Part shown: piece by piece, positions 4,969 to 59,891 of the stretch
Layout: each line of letters opens with the position of its first letter
Numbering within the stretch: the stretch's first letter is position 1
Assembly (NCBI GenBank): GCA_002347645.1
Contig: DDYF01000060.1
Span: 38,663 to 102,662, forward strand
DNA length: 64,000 nt
Source: Thermoleophilia bacterium UBA2241
GTDB lineage: Bacteria > Actinomycetota > Thermoleophilia > UBA2241
Reading direction: 5' to 3'
Made by a program: the position numbers and the translations under genes
The notes under the pieces: model-generated
Told to the model about the DNA's origin: nothing
Seen by the model: only the letters and a program-made list of their open reading frames with translations
Database searches by the model: none

Positions 4969-5367
4969 GTGGCCAAGCCGCAGAGAGCCAAGGGACGCCA
5001 GCGCCGCCGGGTGCGCAAGAACATCGCCATCGGCCAGGCGCACATCAAGACCTCGTTCAACAACACGCTGGTGACGCTCACCGACAAGGAGGGCAACGTC
5101 ATCGCGTGGGAGAGCGCCGGATCGGTGGGCTTCAAGGGCTCACGCAAGAGCACGCCCTACGCTGCCCAGGTCACGGCCGAGTCGTGTGCGCGCAAGGGCA
5201 TGGAGCACGGCCTGCAGAAGGTCGAGGTCTTCGTCCGTGGCCCCGGCAGTGGCCGTGAGACGGCCGTGCGTTCGCTGCAGGCCGCTGGCCTCGAGGTCCT
5301 CGGCGTCAGAGACGTCACCCCGGTCCCGCACAACGGCTGTCGGCCGCGCAAGCGTCGCCGGGTCTAG
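4969..5367 (+). CDS. rpsK: 30S ribosomal protein S11
   Basis: [12 protein letters not shown]...[11 protein letters not shown] motifs. Confidence 0.93.
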
Positions 5368-5379
5368 GAAGGTCGAGTC

Positions 5380-6000
5380 GTGGCTAAAGACACCTCACCA
5401 CAGTGCAAGCAGTGCCGCCGCGAGAACGAGAAGCTCTTTCTCAAGGGCGAACGCTGCCTGACCGACAAGTGCTCCGTCGAGCGGCGGTCCTACGCGCCGG
5501 GCGAGCACGGGCGCGGGCGCATCAAGCAGTCCGAGTACCTGCTGCAGCTGCGCGAGAAGCAGAAGGCGCGGCGGTACTACCAGTTGCTCGAGAAGCAGTT
5601 CCACCAATACTACGAGACGGCGAGCCGCAAGCAGGGCATCACGGGCGAGAACCTGTTGCGCCTCCTTGAGATGAGGCTCGACAACGTCGTCTACCGTCTG
5701 GGCTTCGGCGCCTCCAGGCGCCAGGCGCGCCAGCTCGTGCGTCACGCCCACTTCCTGGTGAACGGCAAGAAGGTCGACATCCCATCCTACCAGGTGCGGC
5801 CCGACGACGTCGTGTCGCTGCGGCCCAACAGCAAGGCCATCGAGGAGGTGCGCGCCGCGACCGATCTCACGTCGTCGGTCGCTCCGTGGCTGCTGGCGGA
5901 CCACGACAACCTGACGGGCAAGGTCCTGCGCGCTCCCGAGCGCGACGAGATCGACACGCCCGTTCAGGAGCAGCTCATCATCGAGCTGTACTCCAAGTAG
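5380..6000 (+). CDS. rpsD: 30S ribosomal protein S4
   Basis: N-terminal C4 zinc knuckle [24 protein letters not shown]4 domain; alpha-operon position. Confidence 0.92.
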
Positions 6001-13783: not shown

Positions 13784-14680
13784 TCACAGGCTCGGTGACT
13801 CTTTGGGGCCGGCCCGCTGGGCCGGCCCTTCGCATCCCACGAGCTCGGGCTCTGCCCAGGCCAGCCGTTCGGCCATGATGCGCACCGCCTCAGGGTTGTT
13901 GTCGACGAGCAGAAACCGCCGGCCCAGGCGTGCCGCGGCCTCCCCGGTCGTGCCGCTGCCGGCGAAGAAGTCAAGGACCAGGTCCCCCGGCTCGGAGTGC
14001 ACGCGCACGATGCGCTCGAGCACGCGCAGCGGCTTCTGTGTCGGGTAGCCGGTCTTCTCCTTGCCGGTCGGGCTGACGATCGTGTTCCACCAGACGTCGG
14101 TGGGGGTCTTGCCCCGGGCGGCCTTGCGCGGGCCTACGAGCGCCGGCGCCATGTAGGGGATGCGGTCGATCTCGTCGTAGCGGAACACGTACCGTCTGGG
14201 GTCACGCGCGTACCAGTAGATCACGTCGTGCTTGGCGGGCCAGCGCGTCCTCGGTCGCCCGCCGTAGTCGTACGCCCAGACGATCTCGTTGACGAACGAG
14301 GACCGGCCGAAGACCTCGTCGAGCAGCACCTTGCAGTAATGTGCCTCGCGGGGATCGATGTGGAAGAACAGCGAGCCGTCCGCGGCGAGGACGCGCCGCG
14401 CCTCGGTGAGGCGCGGCGCAAGGAAGCCCAGGTAGTCGTCGTAGGCATCTCGCCAGGCGGTCGTGCTCAGCACGTACGTGCGGTAGCGTGCCTCCTGGAA
14501 CCCCGTGCGGTCGCCCGTCTCGTCGCGCACGGTGCGTACGCGCGTGCGCCGCTGTTCGCCGCCCGTGTTGAAGGGCGGGTCGATGTAGACGAGGCGCGCG
14601 AGGCCGTCGGGCAGCGCGCGCAGGACGTCGAGGTTGTCGCCGAGGACGATGCGTCCGCCGGCCGGGGCAGCGGCCTCCAT
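13784..14680 (-). CDS. DNA methyltransferase, beta-class amino-MTase (DPPF motif IV preceding FxGSG motif I), N6-adenine or N4-cytosine
   Basis: VYIDPPFNTG ... DLVLDFFAGSGTTGEAA; 298 aa; no nuclease neighbour. Confidence 0.8.
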   Translation of the reverse strand: MEAAAPAGGRIVLGDNLDVLRALPDGLARLVYIDPPFNTGGEQRRTRVRTVRDETGDRTGFQEARYRTYVLSTTAWRDAYDDYLGFLAPRLTEARRVLAADGSLFFHIDPREAHYCKVLLDEVFGRSSFVNEIVWAYDYGGRPRTRWPAKHDVIYWYARDPRRYVFRYDEIDRIPYMAPALVGPRKAARGKTPTDVWWNTIVSPTGKEKTGYPTQKPLRVLERIVRVHSEPGDLVLDFFAGSGTTGEAAARLGRRFLLVDNNPEAVRIMAERLAWAEPELVGCEGPAQRAGPKESPSL

Positions 14681-14704
14681 GGCCGCTAGTCTACTGCGCG
14701 CCCG

Positions 14705-20858: not shown

Positions 20859-21338
20859 TCAGCCTCCTGGTTCGCGGACGTCGGTCGCGGGCGACCACTG
20901 GTAGTTGTCTTTGAGGACCTTGAGCATGAGCAGCAGCTCGGCCTCCATGATGCCGGGGATCGGCCGGATGCGGTTCACGAGCAGGTCGTACAGCGCCTCA
21001 CGGTCGTGGCAGACGACGCCGACCGTGAGGTCGAAGCGCCCGGCGCAGATGCCGACGAAGTCGACCTCCGGCAGCGCGGCGATCTCTTGCGCCGCCTGCC
21101 GCAGCCGGTCGCCGGCGACGCGGATGTCGATCTGCGCCGACAGCAGCCCCAGGTCGAGCGGGCTCGAGGCGGCGACGATCTGGATGACCTTGCGCTTGAT
21201 GAGGCGCGAGACCCGCTGGCGGACGCTCGCCTCGGAGATGCCGAGGTCCTTGGCGATCCTCGTGTACGGACGGCGCCCGTCCTGCTGCAGGTGCGTGATG
21301 ATCTTCGCGTCGACGCTGTCGAGGCCGATGCCGCGCAT
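20859..21338 (-). CDS. Lrp/AsnC-family transcriptional regulator
   Basis: HTH DAKIITHLQQDGRRPYTRIAKDLGISEASV plus RAM domain. Confidence 0.85.
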   Translation of the reverse strand: MRGIGLDSVDAKIITHLQQDGRRPYTRIAKDLGISEASVRQRVSRLIKRKVIQIVAASSPLDLGLLSAQIDIRVAGDRLRQAAQEIAALPEVDFVGICAGRFDLTVGVVCHDREALYDLLVNRIRPIPGIMEAELLLMLKVLKDNYQWSPATDVREPGG

Positions 21339-21494
21339 TCTGCTCCTTTCCCCGCCCCATTCTACGAATCGGCGCAGCGAAAGGCCAGCGTTTCTGCGAT
21401 TTCGGCAGGCGCAGAGTAGCGGGAAGCCGTCCGGCGATAGGATGCGCAGCGAGGCGCGGCGCCGGCCGTGCCGCCCGGCGACAAGGAGACCAGC

Positions 21495-22064
21495 ATGAAG
21501 ATAGAGCGGAGGCCGACGACGGCGCTGCTGCCCAATCCCGTCGTCCTCGTGAGCGCCGCGGGTGGCGCCGGGGACGGCAACTTCCTCACCATCGCCTGGG
21601 TGGGGACGGTGTGCTCGTCGCCGCCGATGGTGAGCGTCGCCATCCGCCCGTCGCGCTACTCATACGACCTCGTCAGCGCCGCGCGCGAGTTCGTCGTCAA
21701 CATCCCGAACGCGGAGCAGCTCGAGGGGGTGGACGTCGCCGGCGTCTGGTCGGGCCGCGAGCACGACAAGTTCGCCGAGCTCGGGTTCACGGCCCTGTCG
21801 GCGACCAAGGTCGGCGCGCCGCTGATCGCCGAGTGCCCGGTCAACCTCGAGTGCGTGGTGCGTCACCAGCTGGCACTCGGGGCGCACGACCTGTTCATCG
21901 CCGAGATCGTGGCGACGCACTACGACGAGGAAGTGCTCGACAGTCGCGGTCGGCTCAAGCCCAATGCCCTGCACCCGTTCACGCTCGTCGGCGGTGAGTA
22001 CTGGTCGCTCGGCGAGCGTATCGGCCTGTACGGCGCCGCGGCCAAGGCGCGCGCGAAGGAGTGA
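21495..22064 (+). CDS. flavin reductase-like (FMN-binding split-barrel) protein
   Basis: VVLVSAAG...NFLTIAWVGTVCSSPPMVSV...GREHDKF motifs; RBS AAGGAG. Confidence 0.75.
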   Translation: MKIERRPTTALLPNPVVLVSAAGGAGDGNFLTIAWVGTVCSSPPMVSVAIRPSRYSYDLVSAAREFVVNIPNAEQLEGVDVAGVWSGREHDKFAELGFTALSATKVGAPLIAECPVNLECVVRHQLALGAHDLFIAEIVATHYDEEVLDSRGRLKPNALHPFTLVGGEYWSLGERIGLYGAAAKARAKE

Positions 22065-22089: not shown

Positions 22090-23268
22090 TCAGGTCGGGG
22101 GTCCTCCGTGCAGACGGGCCGCCAGCCCCGCCAGAGCGAGGTCGCGGGCGTCCTCGGCGCTCGCCTCGGCCGCCCACCAGTGCGCGTCGAGCTCGGCGCC
22201 CTGCACGACTCGCCGATACAGCTCGGGGGTGGCTACGTAGTGGGCGCTGCGTCCTGCGCCCCGGCCGCACAGGAGGCCCGCGGCGACCATCTTGCCCAGG
22301 TCGTGCGACGCGGTGACACCCGACACGCCGGCCGTCCCGCGGTAGAAGCGGTTCGTGACGTCGCGCGCGAAGAAGGCGTCGTACAGCGCGTGGGTCGCGC
22401 GCTCCGCCAGCCCCAGATCGTGGACGGCGACGTCCTCGAGCACCGTCCAGAGGGCGCGCTCCGTGGCGTTGCGCAAGGAGAGCGCCTCGACCTGCGTCGC
22501 CTGCGCGACGACGTGGGCCTCGACGAACGGCGTGACGTCCGCGTCGGGGGCCCACGTGGAGCCAAGGCAGTCGAAGGCGCGGTAGTACTCGTCGGGGTGC
22601 CGGCCCCACCATTCCTCAAGGCTCGTGAACTGCGGCAGACGGTAGCCACCACGGTACATCGCCAGGGACGCCGCGATGCGCGCTGTGCGGCCGTTGCCGT
22701 CGACGAACGGGTGGATGCCGGCAAGTGAGACATGAACGATGGCCGCCTTCAGCGCTGCGGGCTCGGCGGCCTCGTCCATCCACGTGCAGACCTCCGCGAT
22801 CGCCCGCGGGACGACATCGGCCGTGGGTGGCAGGTAGACCCTGTCGCCGGACGCGCTGTTCGTCAGCCAGTTCTGCCCGGTGCGGAAGCGCCCGGCACCC
22901 CGGGAGTAGGCGCCCGCCAGCACCCGGTGATGGATGGCCGAGATCAGCTCCGCATGCCAGCCGAACGACTCGGCGTCGGCACGGGCAAGGACGAGGTGCA
23001 TCGCGTCTCGGTAGCCGCGCACGAGGTCGGCGTCGGCGTCGGCGACGCCGGCCGGCCGGTCGCCCGCGAGGATGCGGCGTGCCTCGTCGACGGTGACCGG
23101 CACGCCTTCGAGCATCGTGGACGCCGCCGTCGCCTCGGCCTCGAGGTCGCGACGGGTCCGACCCTTCCAGGTGCGGGGAAGGGGCCCCTGCGCGTCGAGG
23201 CGCGCGCGTAGCTCCTCGATGCGAGCGAGGGCATCGCTAGTGGCGGCGGTGAGCGCGAACCCGAACAC
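22090..23268 (-). CDS. Fic-family protein (AMPylator-type), class II with N-terminal inhibitory motif
   Basis: Active-site HPFVDGNGRTARI; N-terminal STMLEG fits [ST]xxxE[GN] inhibitory helix; C-terminal wHTH-like region. Confidence 0.8.
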   Translation of the reverse strand: MFGFALTAATSDALARIEELRARLDAQGPLPRTWKGRTRRDLEAEATAASTMLEGVPVTVDEARRILAGDRPAGVADADADLVRGYRDAMHLVLARADAESFGWHAELISAIHHRVLAGAYSRGAGRFRTGQNWLTNSASGDRVYLPPTADVVPRAIAEVCTWMDEAAEPAALKAAIVHVSLAGIHPFVDGNGRTARIAASLAMYRGGYRLPQFTSLEEWWGRHPDEYYRAFDCLGSTWAPDADVTPFVEAHVVAQATQVEALSLRNATERALWTVLEDVAVHDLGLAERATHALYDAFFARDVTNRFYRGTAGVSGVTASHDLGKMVAAGLLCGRGAGRSAHYVATPELYRRVVQGAELDAHWWAAEASAEDARDLALAGLAARLHGGPPT

Positions 23269-23289
23269 GACTGCACCTCCGAATCGTCA

Positions 23290-50391: not shown

Positions 50392-50462
50392 ACCCGGCCT
50401 TGCGACTCCTCGCCCCCGGCGGTACCGTGAAGGGGTACCTGGGGCCGAAGAAGGAGGGCCAG

Positions 50463-51725
50463 ATGCACCGCTCGTCGCACGTTCAACGCTGCCTGCTGGC
50501 GCTCGCCGTGGCGCTGCTGCTCGCGCTTGGCGCGGCGCCGGCCGCACCGGGCGCTGGCTCCCAGTCCGCCGCGCCATGGACCTTCATGGTCTACCTCGAC
50601 GGCGACAACAACCTCGACGCGTGGGGCGCCTACACGCTCGACCTGATGGCTCAAGGTCTCGCCGCCGGGGATTACGGCAACGTCGCCATACCCGTCCTGT
50701 ACGACCACTACGGCGACGGCGGCGCCGAGCAGGGCATCGTCACCGCCGAGGGCTTCGTCAAGCTCGCCGACGTGCCCGAGCCCGACATGTCGTCGGGAGA
50801 CACGCTCGCCGCCTTCCTTGAATGGGCGATGGAGGGATGGCCGGCCGAGCGCTACGTGCTCGACGTGTGGGACCACGGCGCCGGCTGGTACTACCTGTGC
50901 TCCGACAGCACGACGCAGGCGCAGGAGAGCGACGATCCCCTGCACGGCCGGATGCTGGTCGACGAGCTGGCCCGCGGCATCCGCGCCGGGGAGGCCGCGG
51001 TGGGGCGGCCCGTCGATATGGTCCTCTTCGAGGCCTGCAATATGGGCATGGTCGAGGTGAGCTATGAGCTGGGCGGCCTCTGCGACGTCATGGTCGGCAC
51101 TGAACTGACGCAAGACTACGAGGGCATCCCGTGGGAGCGCACCATGGCGACGCTCGACGCGACCCCGGGCCTCGCGACGATGGGCCTCGGCAAGGCCATG
51201 TGCGACGACCTCGTCTGGTCGTACCAGACGCAGAACAAGGACGCCAGCATGATCGCCGCGCTGTCGGCGATCGACATGTCGGCGCAGGAGGAGCTGGTCG
51301 CCGCCCTGGATGGTCTCGCCGTGTCCCTCGCGTCGAACATGAAGGCATGGCGGGGCGCCGTGGGCGGCGCCGCCGGCGCGGCACGCAACCAGATGGGCTT
51401 CGGCGGCGTCAGCGGCTACTTCTGGTTCGCCGACGCCTACCGGTTCGCCGACGAGGTGGGCAAGAGGATCGCCGACGCCCGGGTCGACCGCTGGTGTGTG
51501 CGCGTGAAGGCGGCGGTGGCGAACGGTCTGTACACGGCCACCGGGAAGAATCTGGTGGGCAAGTGCTACGGCCTCAGTATCGCCTTCCCGCCCAGCCTCT
51601 CGGCCTACAACGTCGCCTGTTGGCCTATCTTCGACTACGCCGGCTGCGGTCTCGACTTCACCGCCGACACGCACTGGGACGAGATGCTCCGCGCCTACTA
51701 CGGGGCGAAAGCCAAGCACCGCTGA
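50463..51725 (+). CDS. secreted clostripain-like cysteine peptidase (family C11)
   Basis: Signal peptide; WTFMVYLDGDNNLD hallmark, catalytic dyad context DHGAGW (His) and FEACNMG (Cys); RBS AAGGAGGG. Confidence 0.7.
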   Translation: MHRSSHVQRCLLALAVALLLALGAAPAAPGAGSQSAAPWTFMVYLDGDNNLDAWGAYTLDLMAQGLAAGDYGNVAIPVLYDHYGDGGAEQGIVTAEGFVKLADVPEPDMSSGDTLAAFLEWAMEGWPAERYVLDVWDHGAGWYYLCSDSTTQAQESDDPLHGRMLVDELARGIRAGEAAVGRPVDMVLFEACNMGMVEVSYELGGLCDVMVGTELTQDYEGIPWERTMATLDATPGLATMGLGKAMCDDLVWSYQTQNKDASMIAALSAIDMSAQEELVAALDGLAVSLASNMKAWRGAVGGAAGAARNQMGFGGVSGYFWFADAYRFADEVGKRIADARVDRWCVRVKAAVANGLYTATGKNLVGKCYGLSIAFPPSLSAYNVACWPIFDYAGCGLDFTADTHWDEMLRAYYGAKAKHR

Positions 51726-51748
51726 GCGCGTCTATACTCACCTCGCGT

Positions 51749-51838
51749 GCCGGAGTGGCGGAACTGGCAGACGCGGGGGACTTAAAATCCTCTGCCGCCC
51801 CGTGCGGCGTCCGGGTTCGAACCCCGGCTCCGGCACCA
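51749..51838 (+). tRNA. tRNA-Leu (anticodon TAA), long variable arm, CCA encoded
   Basis: Acceptor GCCGGAG/CTCCGGC, anticodon loop CTTAAAA, extra arm, T-arm CCGGG-TTCGAAC-CCCGG. Confidence 0.8.
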
Positions 51839-51957
51839 CGATCCCGCTGGTCACCGGATGCTGGCGGCATGTCTCTATCGCCCCGTTGCGGCAGGCGTAG
51901 GATGCTACCGTCACCTTGAGCCGACTTGGTGTGCTTCTCCACCGGGAAGGGGTCTAG

Positions 51958-53337
51958 ATGAAACGCTCGCTTGCCTCTCTCGCTCTCCTTGCCTCCCTCG
52001 TCCTCCTCGCCGCCAGCGCCCCGCTCCTCTGCGGCCTCGCGCAGCCGCCCGCGGCCGCGGCGGTGAGCTTCGCCGCCAAGGCCGACTTCGGCGTGGGTCA
52101 CGGACCCAGATCGATCGCCGTCGCCGACCTCAACCGCGACGGTGCCAAGGACCTGGCGACGGCCGACTGCTTCGCCGACACCGTCAGCGTGCTTCCCGGC
52201 GACAGCAGTGGCCGGTTCGATCTCAGGAGCACCTTCGCCACGGGCGACTACCCCGTGGCGGTCGCCGTCGGCGACTTCCTCGAGGACCGCTGGCGCGACT
52301 TGGTGACGGCCGACGTAAACAGCGACGCGGCTGCTCTCCTGTTCGGCAGCGGCTTCGGCTTTCACCCGTTCGCCGAGACCGGCGTCGGCGACGCGCCGTT
52401 GGCGGTCGTCGCGGTCGACGTCGATCGCGACGGCAACACCGACCTGCTGACGGCCAACTACTTCGTCGACACCGTCAGCGTGCTGCTCGGGACCGGCGCC
52501 GGCGGCTTCTCCGTCAGGACCGATTTCGCGGTCGACGACGGACCGATGTCGATTGCCGTCGCCGACTTCGACCGTGACGGCGCCAGGGACCTCGTCACGG
52601 CCAACTACGGCGACGACACAGTCACCCTGCGCTTCGGCGACGGCCGCGGCGGCTTCCCGCTCACGATGTACCGCATCGTCGGCGACGGTCCCAGATCGAT
52701 CGCCGTTGCGGACTTCAACGGCGACGGTGCGATGGACTACGCGACCGCCAATGAGCTGGCGAACTCGGTCACCGTGCGGCTCGGCGACGGGAGCGGTGGC
52801 TTCTCCCCGAGAACCGACGTGCCCACCGGCCAGGGCCCGTACGGTATTGCCGTGTCCGACTTCAACGGCGACCGTGCGAAGGACTTGGCGACGGCCAATC
52901 TGGACGTCGACACCGTCAGTGTGCTGATGGGCGACGGTCGCGGGGGTTTCGGCGCGGCCAACGCGTTCGGCGTGGGCGACGGTCCCTGGGCGGTAGCCGC
53001 TGCCGACGTCGACGGCGACGGCAAGCCAGACCTGGTGACGGCCAACCACTATGCCGACACCGTGAGCCTGCTGCTCAACACCTGCCGGCCGCGGATCGTC
53101 TCGCTCTCCCCGACGGCCTCCTGGGCGGGCGCCACGGTGACGATCAAGGGCTGGGGCTTCGGCGCCAAGCGTGGCACGAGCAAGGTCACCTTCGGCCACA
53201 AGGCGGTGACGAAGTACGTCTCGTGGTCGAAGGCGAGGATCAAGGTCAAGGTGCCGGCGATGTCCGTCGGCCGCAAGGCCGTCCGCGTGAGGACCGAGGA
53301 CGGCCGCAGCAACGCCAGGTACTTCAGCGTGCGCTGA
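51958..53337 (+). CDS. secreted FG-GAP-repeat beta-propeller protein with C-terminal IPT/TIG-like domain
   Basis: Signal peptide; seven repeats with Ca-binding-like D-x-[DN]-x-D-G (DLNRDGAKDL, DFNGDGAMDY ...); C-terminal Ig-like beta domain. Confidence 0.7.
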   Translation: MKRSLASLALLASLVLLAASAPLLCGLAQPPAAAAVSFAAKADFGVGHGPRSIAVADLNRDGAKDLATADCFADTVSVLPGDSSGRFDLRSTFATGDYPVAVAVGDFLEDRWRDLVTADVNSDAAALLFGSGFGFHPFAETGVGDAPLAVVAVDVDRDGNTDLLTANYFVDTVSVLLGTGAGGFSVRTDFAVDDGPMSIAVADFDRDGARDLVTANYGDDTVTLRFGDGRGGFPLTMYRIVGDGPRSIAVADFNGDGAMDYATANELANSVTVRLGDGSGGFSPRTDVPTGQGPYGIAVSDFNGDRAKDLATANLDVDTVSVLMGDGRGGFGAANAFGVGDGPWAVAAADVDGDGKPDLVTANHYADTVSLLLNTCRPRIVSLSPTASWAGATVTIKGWGFGAKRGTSKVTFGHKAVTKYVSWSKARIKVKVPAMSVGRKAVRVRTEDGRSNARYFSVR

Positions 53338-53461
53338 AAGGACGGGGCCACACGCCTACCCTCAGCTAGAGGTCGAGGGTGGAGGGAGCGCTGGCGGGGC
53401 AGCCGCTCACGCCGATCTCCGCCACGAGGCACAAGCTCGCCTCCGTCGCTCGTGCGGAAGT

Positions 53462-53501
53462 GTTGCCATCGCTGGCAACGCATGTTGCCGACTCAGGCAA
53501 C
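53462..53501. promoter_or_regulatory. two adjacent 18-bp palindromes GTTGCC-N6-GGCAAC (53462-53479, 53484-53501)
   Basis: GTTGCCatcgctGGCAAC gcat GTTGCCgactcaGGCAAC, 57 nt upstream of ORF 53558. Confidence 0.8.
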
Positions 53502-53557
53502 AAGCGTCGTTCCGTCCGCTATGCATGATTGACTCAGGGCGTTGCATTTGACGCTGC

Positions 53558-54553
53558 ATGGCCGGCGAGACGCCCTACGCGGTGACGCAGGCCTCGGATC
53601 CGTCGAGCTACACCGGCAAGACGCGGGTCTCGGTCCTCAAGACCGTCGACGGGATGCCCTTCAGCGGGCCGGAGCTCACGTTCCAGCTCCGCCAGGGCGC
53701 CTCGATGACGTCGCTCGGCACGGTCCTCGAGGAGAAGAAGGCCAACGTCGGCAACGGCGGGCTCGTGAAGTTCGACACGCTGCTCCTGCCCGGGACCTAT
53801 CAGTTCGTGGAGCTGATCCCGGAGCACTACGTCCCCAGCTACGTGTGGGGCGACTATGGTGTCGAATGGTTCAGGCCCGGTTACGAGCCCGGCGAGGGCG
53901 GCGAGGACCCGGTGATCTGGGTCGCCGTCAACTTCACCGTGAACGCCGACGGCACGATCGACTTCCAGAACGGTCAGCAGCTCGTGCAGCCCGGCGACAG
54001 CATCGACATCGACAACCAGACCGGCCAGATGCCGTTCACCATCGGCTACTGGAAGAACCACTCGTCGGCCGCGGCCAACAACGGCGGCCAGGAGCCGGTG
54101 CTCGACCAGATGCTCTACAAGGCCACACAGGCCGGCCAGACCATCCAGATCGGCACGCTGCCGCTGCCGGGAGGGGCCACGCCTGACGATGCCGGTGCAT
54201 CGGCGCTCAAGGCGACCAGGCTGCTCAACAAGTCCACCGTGGTAACGAACAAGAAGAAGGCCAGCGACCCGTGCTGGAACCTGGCGGCGCAGCTGATGGG
54301 CTACCGGCTGAACCAGCCGTTCGGCGCCTGGATGAACCCGACGGCGGACCTCGCCGCTTCCACCTCGCAGACGATGCTTGTGAACGTCAAGTTCAACGGC
54401 GAGAGCTACACGAAGTTCTCGACCAACAAGACGACAGTGGCCCAGTGGACCGCCAACATGAACTACCTGGCGAAGACGCTCGACGCCTACAACAACGGCA
54501 CGCTGCCCCTGGGGCAGGCGCTCGTGATGCCGTACCCGAACGTCGGCTACTGA
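53558..54553 (+). CDS. hypothetical protein (no confidently recognised family; N-terminal prealbumin/Cna-B-like stretch)
   Basis: 331 aa, Asn/Thr/Gln-rich, LLLPGTYQFVELIPEHYVPSY resembles Cna-B-type fold; no signal peptide; native-like GC3. Confidence 0.5.
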   Translation: MAGETPYAVTQASDPSSYTGKTRVSVLKTVDGMPFSGPELTFQLRQGASMTSLGTVLEEKKANVGNGGLVKFDTLLLPGTYQFVELIPEHYVPSYVWGDYGVEWFRPGYEPGEGGEDPVIWVAVNFTVNADGTIDFQNGQQLVQPGDSIDIDNQTGQMPFTIGYWKNHSSAAANNGGQEPVLDQMLYKATQAGQTIQIGTLPLPGGATPDDAGASALKATRLLNKSTVVTNKKKASDPCWNLAAQLMGYRLNQPFGAWMNPTADLAASTSQTMLVNVKFNGESYTKFSTNKTTVAQWTANMNYLAKTLDAYNNGTLPLGQALVMPYPNVGY

Positions 54554-54593
54554 GCGTCGGACCAGCCGCGTGACGCGGCAGCGCTGAACGCCG

Positions 54594-54625
54594 AGGGGGG
54601 GCGGGCCGCAAGGCCCGCCCCCCTC
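54594..54625. terminator. bidirectional stem-loop between convergent genes
   Basis: GAGGGGGGCGGGCC-gcaa-GGCCCGCCCCCCTC followed by CTCTCTCT. Confidence 0.6.
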
Positions 54626-54652
54626 CTCTCTCTGCCATCGCCAGAGCGCGGC

Positions 54653-55159
54653 TCAGCCGCGCTGCGGCGAGACGTCGATCTCGCTCGTCACCCAACCGCC
54701 GTGGGAATCGCCCTCGATCGGCGTGACCTGCTCGTCGTCGACGTAGCAGGCGTCCATGCGGGCGGGGATGAAGGCCACGTAGCCGGCGAGCTCCTCGTAG
54801 CCCGCCGCCGGCCACGGGTGCTCCCAGGCGGCGTCGCGCGCCAGACGGTCGCCGACCCTGACGTCGAAGTAGGCCGCCATGCCCCGGAACACGCACCAGG
54901 TGTGCAGGCCGGAGCGCACGAGCCGGTCGCGGCGCAGGTCGGCCGAGGGGATGAAGTAGAGCGGCGGCCGCCCGGTCTCGAGAAAGCGCAGGGCGCGCCG
55001 CGTGTCGGCGACCACGAGGCCGCTCAGCATGACCCACGCGCGCCGCGTCGTGCGCTCCACGCGCGGAGGGCGCGGGTACTCCCAGACAGATTCGCCCCCC
55101 GACCCGGAGAGCGGCCGGCCGGGCACGTCTCTCCACGTCCTGTCGTCCGTCGAGTCCAT
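54653..55159 (-). CDS. DUF427-like protein
   Basis: SVWEYPRPP...PPLYFIP...TWCVFRGMAAYFDV pattern recalled for DUF427; assignment from memory only. Confidence 0.4.
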   Translation of the reverse strand: MDSTDDRTWRDVPGRPLSGSGGESVWEYPRPPRVERTTRRAWVMLSGLVVADTRRALRFLETGRPPLYFIPSADLRRDRLVRSGLHTWCVFRGMAAYFDVRVGDRLARDAAWEHPWPAAGYEELAGYVAFIPARMDACYVDDEQVTPIEGDSHGGWVTSEIDVSPQRG

Positions 55160-55254
55160 GCCTCCCCGGCCTTTACACGCCTCTGCACGCAGCCTAGCAT
55201 GGTGTGAAGTCCGGCGTGCAGAGGGCGGCCCACCCGCCCGGTCAGGAGGAGCAC

Positions 55255-56154
55255 ATGCTCTGGGTCACTCTCGGCGTAGTTGTCGTCATCGTGGCGCTTC
55301 TCGCCGGCGGCATCCGCATCGTGCGGCCCACGCACCGCGGACTCGTAGAGCGGCTGGGCAAGTACAACCGCTTCTCGAACCCCGGCTTCCACTGGATCAT
55401 CCCGCTCATCGAGCAGATGTACCAGGTCGACATCCGCGAGACGCTGGTCGAGGCGCAGCCGCAGACGATCATCACCAACGACAACCTCAACGCGCGCGTC
55501 GACGCGCAGGTCTACCTCAAGGTCAAGCCGGACGAAGAGAACGTCAAGGCGTCGCAGTACAACGTCGCCAACTACGAGTACCAGATCGTCAATCTGGCGC
55601 GCACGACCCTGAGGAACATCATCGGCACGCTCAGCCTCAAGTCGGCGAACAGCGAGCGCGGCCGCATCAACGACGAGCTTCGCCGCACGCTGCGCGTCGA
55701 GACGGCCAGCTGGGGCATCGAGATCCTGCGCACTGAGCTGAAGGAGATCGACCCGCCGGCGGACGTGCAAGACACCATGAACAAGGTCGTCAAGGCCGAG
55801 AACGAGAAGATCGCCGCCATCGACTACGCGACGGCCACCGAGACACAGGCCGACGGCGCGCGCCGCGCCTCGATCAAGCAGGCCGAGGGGGTCAAGCGCG
55901 CGCGCGTCCTGCAGGCCGAGGGCGAGGCCGAGGCCATCAAGCTGGTCAACGAGGCCGCGGACAAGTACTTCGTCGGCAACGCCCAGGTGCTGCGCCGCCT
56001 CGAGATGGTGGAGCGCGCGCTGCGCGACAACGCGAAAGTGGTGGTGCCCGGCGGGACCGAGCTGGTCAACGTCATCGGCGACCTCGGCGGCGTCCTGCCG
56101 CTGGGCAAGCCGGCCGGCGCCGCGGCGAAGCCGGCGGCGCCGGCGAAGAAGTAG
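55255..56154 (+). CDS. SPFH/band-7 (stomatin/prohibitin-like) membrane protein
   Basis: N-terminal TM then SPFH domain, C-terminal coiled coil and Ala/Lys/Pro tail; RBS AGGAGGAG. Confidence 0.8.
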   Translation: MLWVTLGVVVVIVALLAGGIRIVRPTHRGLVERLGKYNRFSNPGFHWIIPLIEQMYQVDIRETLVEAQPQTIITNDNLNARVDAQVYLKVKPDEENVKASQYNVANYEYQIVNLARTTLRNIIGTLSLKSANSERGRINDELRRTLRVETASWGIEILRTELKEIDPPADVQDTMNKVVKAENEKIAAIDYATATETQADGARRASIKQAEGVKRARVLQAEGEAEAIKLVNEAADKYFVGNAQVLRRLEMVERALRDNAKVVVPGGTELVNVIGDLGGVLPLGKPAGAAAKPAAPAKK

Positions 56155-59383: not shown

Positions 59384-59440
59384 CGCCTCACGCCCGGCCT
59401 GCGCCTCACGTCCGGCCTGCGCCTCACGCCTTGGCCCGCC
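59384..59440. repeat. 2.5 tandem copies of 18-bp unit CGCCTCACG(C/T)CCGGCCTG between zur and znuA (third copy overlaps zur 3' end)
   Basis: 59384-59401, 59402-59419, partial 59420-59440. Confidence 0.8.
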
Positions 59441-59891
59441 GACGTGCGGGTCTGCCGCGGTCCGGCGCCGCGCCGCACTCGGCGCAGAGCCCGCTCAGTT
59501 GCAGGAAGTGCCCGGTGATGCGGTAGCCCGTCTCGCGGCTCGCCGCGGCGAGCACGACGGCCATGTCGCAGTCGGTGAACTCGGTGACGCGGCCGCACGC
59601 GCTGCAGACGACGGAATGCCCGTGCTCGGCCGAGGCGGGGACGAGGCGCTCACAGCCGGATGGCCCGTGGATCCGTCGCAACGCGCCGATCTCGTCGAGC
59701 AGTTCGAGTGTCCGGTAGACGGTGGTGAGGCCGAGGTCGGGGCAGGAGGCCCGGGCCTGCTGGAACACGTCCAGTGGGCTGAGGCACGACCGCGACGCCG
59801 CGACGGCGTCGACGACGGCACGACGCTGCCGGGTCAGCCGAAGACCGCGCGCGGCGAGCTCAGCGACGACCGCGTCCGCATCCAGCGCCAT
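59424..59891 (-). CDS. zur: Fur-family zinc uptake regulator
   Basis: Fur fold with HGHSVVCSACG and CAEC zinc sites; directly upstream of znuACB on same strand. Confidence 0.8.
   Translation of the reverse strand: MALDADAVVAELAARGLRLTRQRRAVVDAVAASRSCLSPLDVFQQARASCPDLGLTTVYRTLELLDEIGALRRIHGPSGCERLVPASAEHGHSVVCSACGRVTEFTDCDMAVVLAAASRETGYRITGHFLQLSGLCAECGAAPDRGRPARRRAKA

Follow-up and report, generated by a model that had tools for sequence, protein, structure and literature searches.

Two perfect palindromes that are built from one and the same half-site and lie side by side ahead of a gene raise the question of what recognises them, and whether it does so in DNA or in RNA. They stand in contig DDYF01000060.1 of Thermoleophilia bacterium UBA2241, within the window analysed here, a continuous stretch of 64,000 nucleotides (64 kb).

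Identical half-sites in non-coding DNA

The features at the centre of the analysis are as follows.
53462..53479, no strand: palindrome 1, GTTGCCatcgctGGCAAC / GTTGCCATCGCTGGCAAC, GTTGCC-atcgct-GGCAAC (direct reading and repeat finder)
53484..53501, no strand: palindrome 2, GTTGCCgactcaGGCAAC / GTTGCCGACTCAGGCAAC, GTTGCC-gactca-GGCAAC (direct reading and repeat finder)
53478..53507: extended palindrome 2, with 12-bp arms ACGCaTGTTGCC / GGCAACAaGCGT and one A/A mismatch (repeat finder)
53338..53557: non-coding spacer of 220 bp from the FG-GAP gene to the ORF (no codon-position GC periodicity)
53451..53557: locally AT-rich, non-coding stretch of 107 bp with both palindromes, 58% GC (composition)

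The preliminary description had placed two 18-bp palindromes here, 4 bp apart; their coordinates and sequences are exact, and they do lie 57-96 nt 5' of the ATG at 53558, the earliest start codon in the frame of the ORF. Palindrome 1 is also perfect as a 7-4-7 repeat (GTTGCCA tcgc TGGCAAC), and palindrome 2, with a T before and an A after it, extends to 7-6-7; according to the repeat finder a T precedes both. The extended form of palindrome 2 (53478-53507) shares 2 bp with the 3' end of palindrome 1. The loop of palindrome 2 (53490-53497) consists of the octamer GACTCAGG; a second copy, 41 bp downstream at 53531-53538, has behind it a lone GTTGCA (53541-53546) that resembles a half-site.

GTTGCC-N6-GGCAAC, with at most one mismatch allowed, matches the 64-kb window twice, both matches being those of the twin, where shuffled sequences lead one to expect 0.20; when three mismatches are allowed, the extra matches are GC-rich coding look-alikes only. 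The free choice of motif was corrected for by a census of all perfect 6-bp arms with spacers of 0-12 bp over the 64-kb window, and among the roughly 900 palindromes so collected the recurrence of the same arm and spacer within 60 bp is unique to this twin. The twin palindromes are not due to chance. When they are aligned as 22-bp units, the leading T and the half-sites are alike at 13 of 13 positions, the spacers at two of six and the trailing flank at none of three, and the half-site sequence is all that the two have in common. Unlike spacers and flanks around identical half-sites point to specific sequence recognition, rather than to recent duplication or to mere pairing of stems; a recent tandem duplication is disfavoured because it would have preserved the spacers. 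From start to start the units are 22 bp apart, about 2.1 turns of the helix, so that the two dyads share one face of the DNA.

The DNA around the palindromes is non-coding. Position-3 GC, read in the frame of the ORF, is 0.59 in the spacer (53338-53557) versus 0.95 inside the ORF, and blastn found no DNA homology of the spacer to relatives, plasmids or phages. The stretch 53451-53557 is a local AT maximum, with 58% GC against 71% for the genome. Since it carries no codon-position GC signal and has this low GC content in a 71% GC genome, the palindrome-bearing stretch behaves like intergenic, regulatory-type DNA.

The flanking genes and the islet at tRNA-Leu(UAA)

The spacer separates two genes on the same strand.
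51958..53337, + strand: FG-GAP gene, encoding FG-GAP repeats, an IPT/TIG domain and a signal peptide, preceded by the Shine-Dalgarno sequence GGGAAGGGG
53558..54553, + strand: downstream ORF, 331 aa (ORF list, homologue alignment, structure prediction)

The downstream ORF had been called an orphan, which is wrong: 42 homologues were found, and alignment shows them to be 70-240 residues longer at the N-terminus, where they carry CLIPPER/DUF11-type repeats. These homologues belong to larger genes in unrelated contexts; on long contigs the module encoded by the ORF is the terminal part of very large CLIPPER/SpaA-repeat surface proteins, and a protein identical to the ORF product, present on a 225-kb contig and in the Logan assembly of SRR1313243, was found only on identical contigs. 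The ORF protein has no match in Pfam or NCBIfam. Its residues 1-18 are predicted to be disordered, and the first 20 or so align with the tail of the preceding repeat domain; residues 21-155 are predicted to form a CnaB-like beta-sandwich that matches CnaB/pilin domains, and residues 160-312 a helical domain with an invariant TIGxWKN (predicted structure and alignment), for which a search gave no good PDB fold match and no Pfam model. This C-terminal helical domain, of about 150 residues, also has conserved LLNKS and DxYNN motifs. The TIGxWKN helical domain, which has no Pfam model and closes CLIPPER/SpaA-repeat surface proteins in many metagenomes, is thus an uncharacterised domain family. No signal peptide was found in the ORF protein, unlike in the upstream FG-GAP/TIG protein. 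Thus, judged from its sequence, the ORF appears to be an N-terminally truncated, export-less surface-protein module whose coding statistics are intact. The homologues of the FG-GAP protein show at most 48% identity and are not syntenic, and no convincing terminator was seen 3' of the FG-GAP gene.

Signals for expression of the ORF were sought in the spacer. A consensus scan, limited to promoters of the sigma-70 type, found none before the ORF. The hexamers TTGACT (53529), TTGCAT (53542) and TTGACG (53548) in 53451-53557 are -35-like, and a weak -10-like CATGAT stands at 53524-53529, 23 nt downstream of the palindromes, and belongs to no scored promoter; the sole TANNNT hexamer of the spacer, TACCCT, is at 53357, 100 nt upstream of the palindromes. 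Direct reading revealed no Shine-Dalgarno sequence 5' of the ATG at 53558. The same scan detects TTTACA-17-TAGCAT (55172-55204) before an SPFH/Band_7 gene; this element ends 4 nt short of the initial GTG of that gene, which points to an mRNA without a leader.

Both genes and the spacer belong to an islet that was delimited by comparison with three relatives (L196, L197 and L199).
51749..51838, + strand: tRNA-Leu(UAA)
51841..54585: lineage-specific islet of about 2.8 kb, with the FG-GAP gene, the palindrome spacer and the ORF (comparison with L196, L197 and L199)
Window, 51749-54650: 3' of tRNA-Leu(UAA), FG-GAP/TIG gene, palindrome spacer, ORF, DUF427 gene
L196, 5610-6002: 3' of tRNA-Leu(UAA), 300 bp, then the DUF427 gene
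L197, 7070-7274: 3' of tRNA-Leu(UAA), 116 bp, then a Band_7 gene
L199, 6252-6960: 3' of tRNA-Leu(UAA), lower-GC DNA and an ATPase-like ORF without a Pfam match
54593..54625: GC-rich hairpin GGGGGGGCGGGCC-GCAA-GGCCCGCCCCCC, -35 kcal/mol, between the convergent ORF and DUF427 gene (folding)

The window belongs to the core chromosome, with genes for ribosomal proteins, SecY, Adk, RpoA, MetRS, Mfd, enolase and pyruvate kinase. The syntenic relatives were located via pyruvate kinase, which is 56% identical to its counterparts in MAGs annotated as Thermoleophilia and 71-75% identical to those of closer relatives. The gene order PK - DivIC - DUF501 - Ppx - tRNA-Leu(UAA) is common to the window and all three relatives; homology to each of them stops at the 3' end of the tRNA (window 51840/51841) and returns, to the right of the islet, near the GC-rich hairpin. 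The islet is absent from all three (3/3), and its GC content is 65-70%, versus 71-78% in the flanks. With four contents in four genomes, the 3' flank of tRNA-Leu(UAA) is an integration hot spot. The islet is like tRNA-linked genomic islands in that it was inserted precisely where the tRNA gene ends on its 3' side, the contents vary in four related genomes and GC is slightly lower; it is unlike them in its size of only about 2.8 kb and in lacking an integrase, mobility genes and a direct repeat of the tRNA end, no att repeat of at least 14 nt having been found. The longest tRNA-derived repeat, 13 nt within the SPFH gene, is consistent with chance. The hairpin at 54593-54625 is probably a bidirectional terminator; part of it is conserved in L196, which assigns it to the resident flank. 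On the other side, 5' of the tRNA, the gene for a clostripain-family (C11) peptidase is complete in the window (50400-51725) and in L199 (4715-6037), and in L196 it is a 329-bp 3' relic (5165-5493) called as an ORF of 102 aa.

A candidate operator and its counterparts elsewhere

We tentatively favour the reading that the twin palindromes are a tandem operator for a dimeric DNA-binding protein. What we infer from the arrangement (binding by a protein, the identity of that protein, the sign of regulation and the present use of the site) is worded conditionally in what follows. Each 6-N6-6 inverted repeat would bind one dimer of a sequence-specific protein on double-stranded DNA; one factor that recognises the half-site is the simplest reading, because selection for pairing alone needs no common stem sequence. 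The binder would most likely be a helix-turn-helix (HTH) protein, whose gene either lies in another part of the genome or disappeared along with the donor DNA. Two dimers, on the same face of the helix and with dyads 22 bp apart, could touch each other, and the bound protein would control transcription into the 331-aa ORF. Possibly, control is exerted at a weak downstream promoter, and taking CATGAT at 53524 for the -10 element would put the dyads near -42 and -64; alternatively, the bound protein might block read-through from the FG-GAP gene.

The twin is a fresh instance of a familiar type of feature. Phage lambda and 434 OR, E. coli hipBA and the paired sites of the TetR family are tandem palindromic operators for HTH dimers, and in such classic systems the regulator is usually autoregulated. 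The likeness lies in perfect inverted repeats whose spacer length is fixed and which recur after some two turns of the helix, in non-coding DNA ahead of a gene; the difference is that in the lambda/434 OR, hipBA and TetR-type systems the regulator gene is adjacent and the promoter overlaps the sites, whereas here no regulator is linked, no promoter is recognisable and the gene that follows is a truncated surface-protein module. The regulators encoded in the window are two.
59424-59891: Fur-family gene, heading the znuA/ABC operon, 6 kb from the palindromes
20859-21659: Lrp/AsnC gene, 32 kb from the palindromes

As had been stated, no regulator gene is adjacent: none lies within 6 kb, and these two are the only regulators in the 64 kb. 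Neither is linked to the palindromes by any of the data here. The earlier proposal of an operator for a dimeric regulator has therefore stood in part: the non-random occurrence, the identical half-sites and the helical phasing hold, whereas a sigma-70-type promoter, a linked regulator and a second site were not found. The operator reading is weakened by the want of a sigma-70-type promoter, a ribosome-binding site, a linked regulator and a second site, no further site with up to one mismatch being present in the 64-kb window and none with up to two mismatches in the non-coding DNA of the related loci (about 28 kb, syntenic). It is also weakened by the downstream ORF, which is truncated and has no export signal, so that there may be little to regulate, and by the location in a recently acquired islet that the relatives lack. 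The presumed target encodes only part of a surface protein, cut off at the N-terminus and without a signal peptide, and the operator may thus be a relic without present function. A sequence TCGCCATGCTGGCAAC just after the tRNA in L199 was rejected as a counterpart of palindrome 1, its score of 23 being below the 95th percentile of shuffled sequences (24).

Counterparts were sought in 185,579 species genomes, scanned for pairs of GTTGCC-N6-GGCAAC with gaps of 0-30 bp. The scan returned 59 stretches, none from the source genome, in unrelated classes: coding tandem repeats, dispersed hairpins, alphaproteobacterial tandem units of 21 or 24 nt, and intergenic arrays beside HTH genes. A viral scan for twin sites gave six unrelated matches. 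The HTH genes beside the arrays encode an XRE protein (L018), HipB with HipA (L022), Rep-O (L036), HTH_36 proteins (L015 and L059) and AlpA-like proteins (L017 and L026); because they are of different families, these neighbours do not name the factor. In L018, a Thermoleophilia MAG (CAZIGT010000185.1), positions 555-710 hold two pairs of 6-N6-6 palindromes, one of GTCGCC-N6-GGCGAC and GTCGCC-N6-GACAAC, the other of GTTGCC-N6-GGCAAC twice, upstream of a 148-aa XRE/HTH_31 gene (- strand) and just downstream of what its translation shows as an apparent proS; this is likely an autoregulated operator array. In L022, an Ilumatobacter MAG, three GTTGCCAATATTGGCAAC sites at 61-260, copies of GTTGCCAAT(A/G)TTGGCAAC, precede a hipB-like HTH gene followed by hipA, and are probably HipB operators with the half-site of the window. 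Repeated palindromes preceding an XRE gene or a hipB-hipA pair make L018 and L022 the direct analogues of the twin; no homologue of the XRE protein of L018 or the HipB protein of L022 is encoded in the window. In L026, which is an alphaproteobacterial MAG, TTGCCAG-N4-CTGGCAA palindromes follow one another four times in tandem, at intervals of 22 bp, between ParA-like and AlpA/HTH_17 genes (5485-5575); they look like a centromere or an operator array, from either an integrative element or a plasmid. That this array and the window have the period of 22 bp in common is probably a coincidence, as the array is the sole gap-4 match among many classes. The occurrence of the repeated palindrome beside HTH genes in unrelated genomes shows GTTGCC-N6-GGCAAC, with this half-site and spacing, to be workable as a protein target, though no single factor is thereby named.

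If the twin is a working operator, it and its regulator would be a new pair for an actinobacterial lineage that is related to Thermoleophilia, branches deeply, is uncultured and is little known; it would also show host control of a freshly acquired surface-protein islet, which is useful but routine regulatory biology. A statistically striking pair of palindromes is insufficient by itself, and the context, a foreign islet and a truncated target, also counts.

Several known elements with a superficial likeness to the twin were considered and set aside. Integron attC core sites read RYYYAAC ... GTTRRRY, and TGGCAAC and GTTGCCA/G are unlike them; nor is there an integrase. A sigma-54 promoter (TGGCAC-N5-TTGC) is rejected on the gap between the GG and GC elements, which is 11 nt at the junction TGGCAACGCATGTTGCC against the 10 required; Actinobacteria are not known to possess RpoN. 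A dif/Xer site and CRISPR were ruled out on spacing or consensus, and an origin of the spacer or the ORF from plasmids or phages was discarded when blastn and tblastn gave no match. A literature search on the motif retrieved nothing bacterial, and only the eukaryotic RFX X-box, GTTGCC N1-3 GGCAAC (PMC2375033). The X-box has identical half-site hexamers in the same inverted orientation, but its spacer is 1-3 nt as against 6 nt here and it is bound by winged-helix RFX factors of eukaryotes; the likeness in sequence is coincidental and no evidence of a relationship.

Alternative readings

An action in RNA is an unlikely alternative to the tandem operator. The palindromes would then be tandem stem-loops of an intercistronic RNA, serving as a terminator or attenuator that lacks a U-tract, or as a site that stabilises or processes the 3' end of the FG-GAP transcript. 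Co-transcription is plausible, because there is no strong terminator after the FG-GAP gene and no promoter was found before the ORF, and the hairpins are reasonably stable when folded as RNA (-14.1 and -17.9 kcal/mol, z-scores -4.3 and -5.7); the 131-nt region as a whole folds better than its shuffles (z = -2.5). Like intrinsic terminators and stabiliser hairpins, the twin offers two stable stem-loops between co-oriented genes, of which the upstream one has no other terminator. Unlike them, it has short and identical stems and no U-tract, and the resident terminator hairpin at 54593-54625, at -35 kcal/mol, far exceeds it in stability. An intrinsic, Rho-independent terminator is rejected in particular, since a scan of 53200-53700 gave no terminator-like site and neither hairpin is followed by a T/U tract, the tails being AAGCGUCGUUCCG and GCAUGUUGCC. 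An Rfam scan of 51500-55500, at E-values up to 5, returned tRNA-Leu as its only significant match and no RNA family at the palindromes. A purely structural constraint leaves identical stems with differing loops unexplained.

The location in the islet bears on a further reading, which we consider rather improbable: that the palindromes are what remains of the operators, iterons or recombination-directionality sites of the donor, an integrative element for instance, whose protein is gone and which have no present function. They do lie within an islet of about 2.8 kb placed 3' of tRNA-Leu, where the three relatives carry different cargo, next to a truncated ORF and with no linked regulator; elsewhere, the neighbours of the repeated palindrome (Rep-O, HTH_36, AlpA-like and ParA-like) are those of mobile elements. 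However, there is no integrase and no att repeat of at least 14 nt in the islet, the spacer is unlike plasmids and phages, and the survival of four perfect half-sites requires either very recent acquisition or ongoing selection.

It is distinctly improbable that the twin belongs to a repeat family of the REP, BIME or MITE type, whose hairpins are scattered about by a stem-recognising transposase. Twin hairpins are abundant elsewhere. In Pseudonocardiaceae/Mycobacteriales MAGs a dispersed repeat of about 100 nt with conserved flanks, which looks MITE- or REP-like, reaches at least 12 copies in one Pseudonocardiaceae MAG (L009, L020, L021, L030, L031, L037, L046, L049, L053, L061, L065 and others). 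A metagenome scan gave, among the matches listed (L076-L195), more than 100 low-GC tandem GTTGCC-N6-GGCAAC units from few samples (JGI samples Ga0209780, Ga0209363, Ga0056123 and Ga0049094), repeating every 21 or 23 bp, their flanks and loops conserved. Against membership in such a family, the twin is a single locus in the 64 kb of the window and the approximately 28 kb of relatives. In the Pseudonocardiales repeat, moreover, the loops complement each other and form one long hairpin, GGA-GTTGCC-ACAGAC-GGCAAC-TT..AA-GTTGCC-GTCTGT-GGCAAC-TCC, which is not so here, and the conserved loops and flanks of the low-GC families are unrelated to the site in the window.

Two readings are very improbable. 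A gene fragment for the 331-aa module, without a promoter of its own, might have been captured behind the FG-GAP gene, with the twin at the join as the recognition structure of an integrase-independent or trans-acting cassette insertion at the tRNA-Leu hot spot; the twin would be loosely like integron attC in this role, but its sequence is another and no recombinase is linked. A neutral accident, whether of chance or of decayed upstream coding repeats of the surface-protein gene, can draw on a weak tblastn alignment of the closest homologue that runs in frame from 53468 over a stop codon and on into the ORF ('IAGNACC' versus 'LAGDADC') and on the presence of GTTGCC...GGCAAC in coding tandem repeats (V-A-x-x-G-N) elsewhere, but it is largely refuted by a chance expectation far below 1 and a 22-bp period that is not a multiple of 3, and relic coding DNA is ruled out because DNA similarity of the ORF to relatives starts only at about 53589 and the spacer shows no codon-position GC in the frame of the ORF.

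Elsewhere in the window, a DNA methyltransferase gene (N6_N4_Mtase, 13784-14704, - strand), with no restriction partner among the window genes scanned against Pfam, and a gene for a Fic-domain protein (22090-23286, - strand) are each found amid housekeeping genes.
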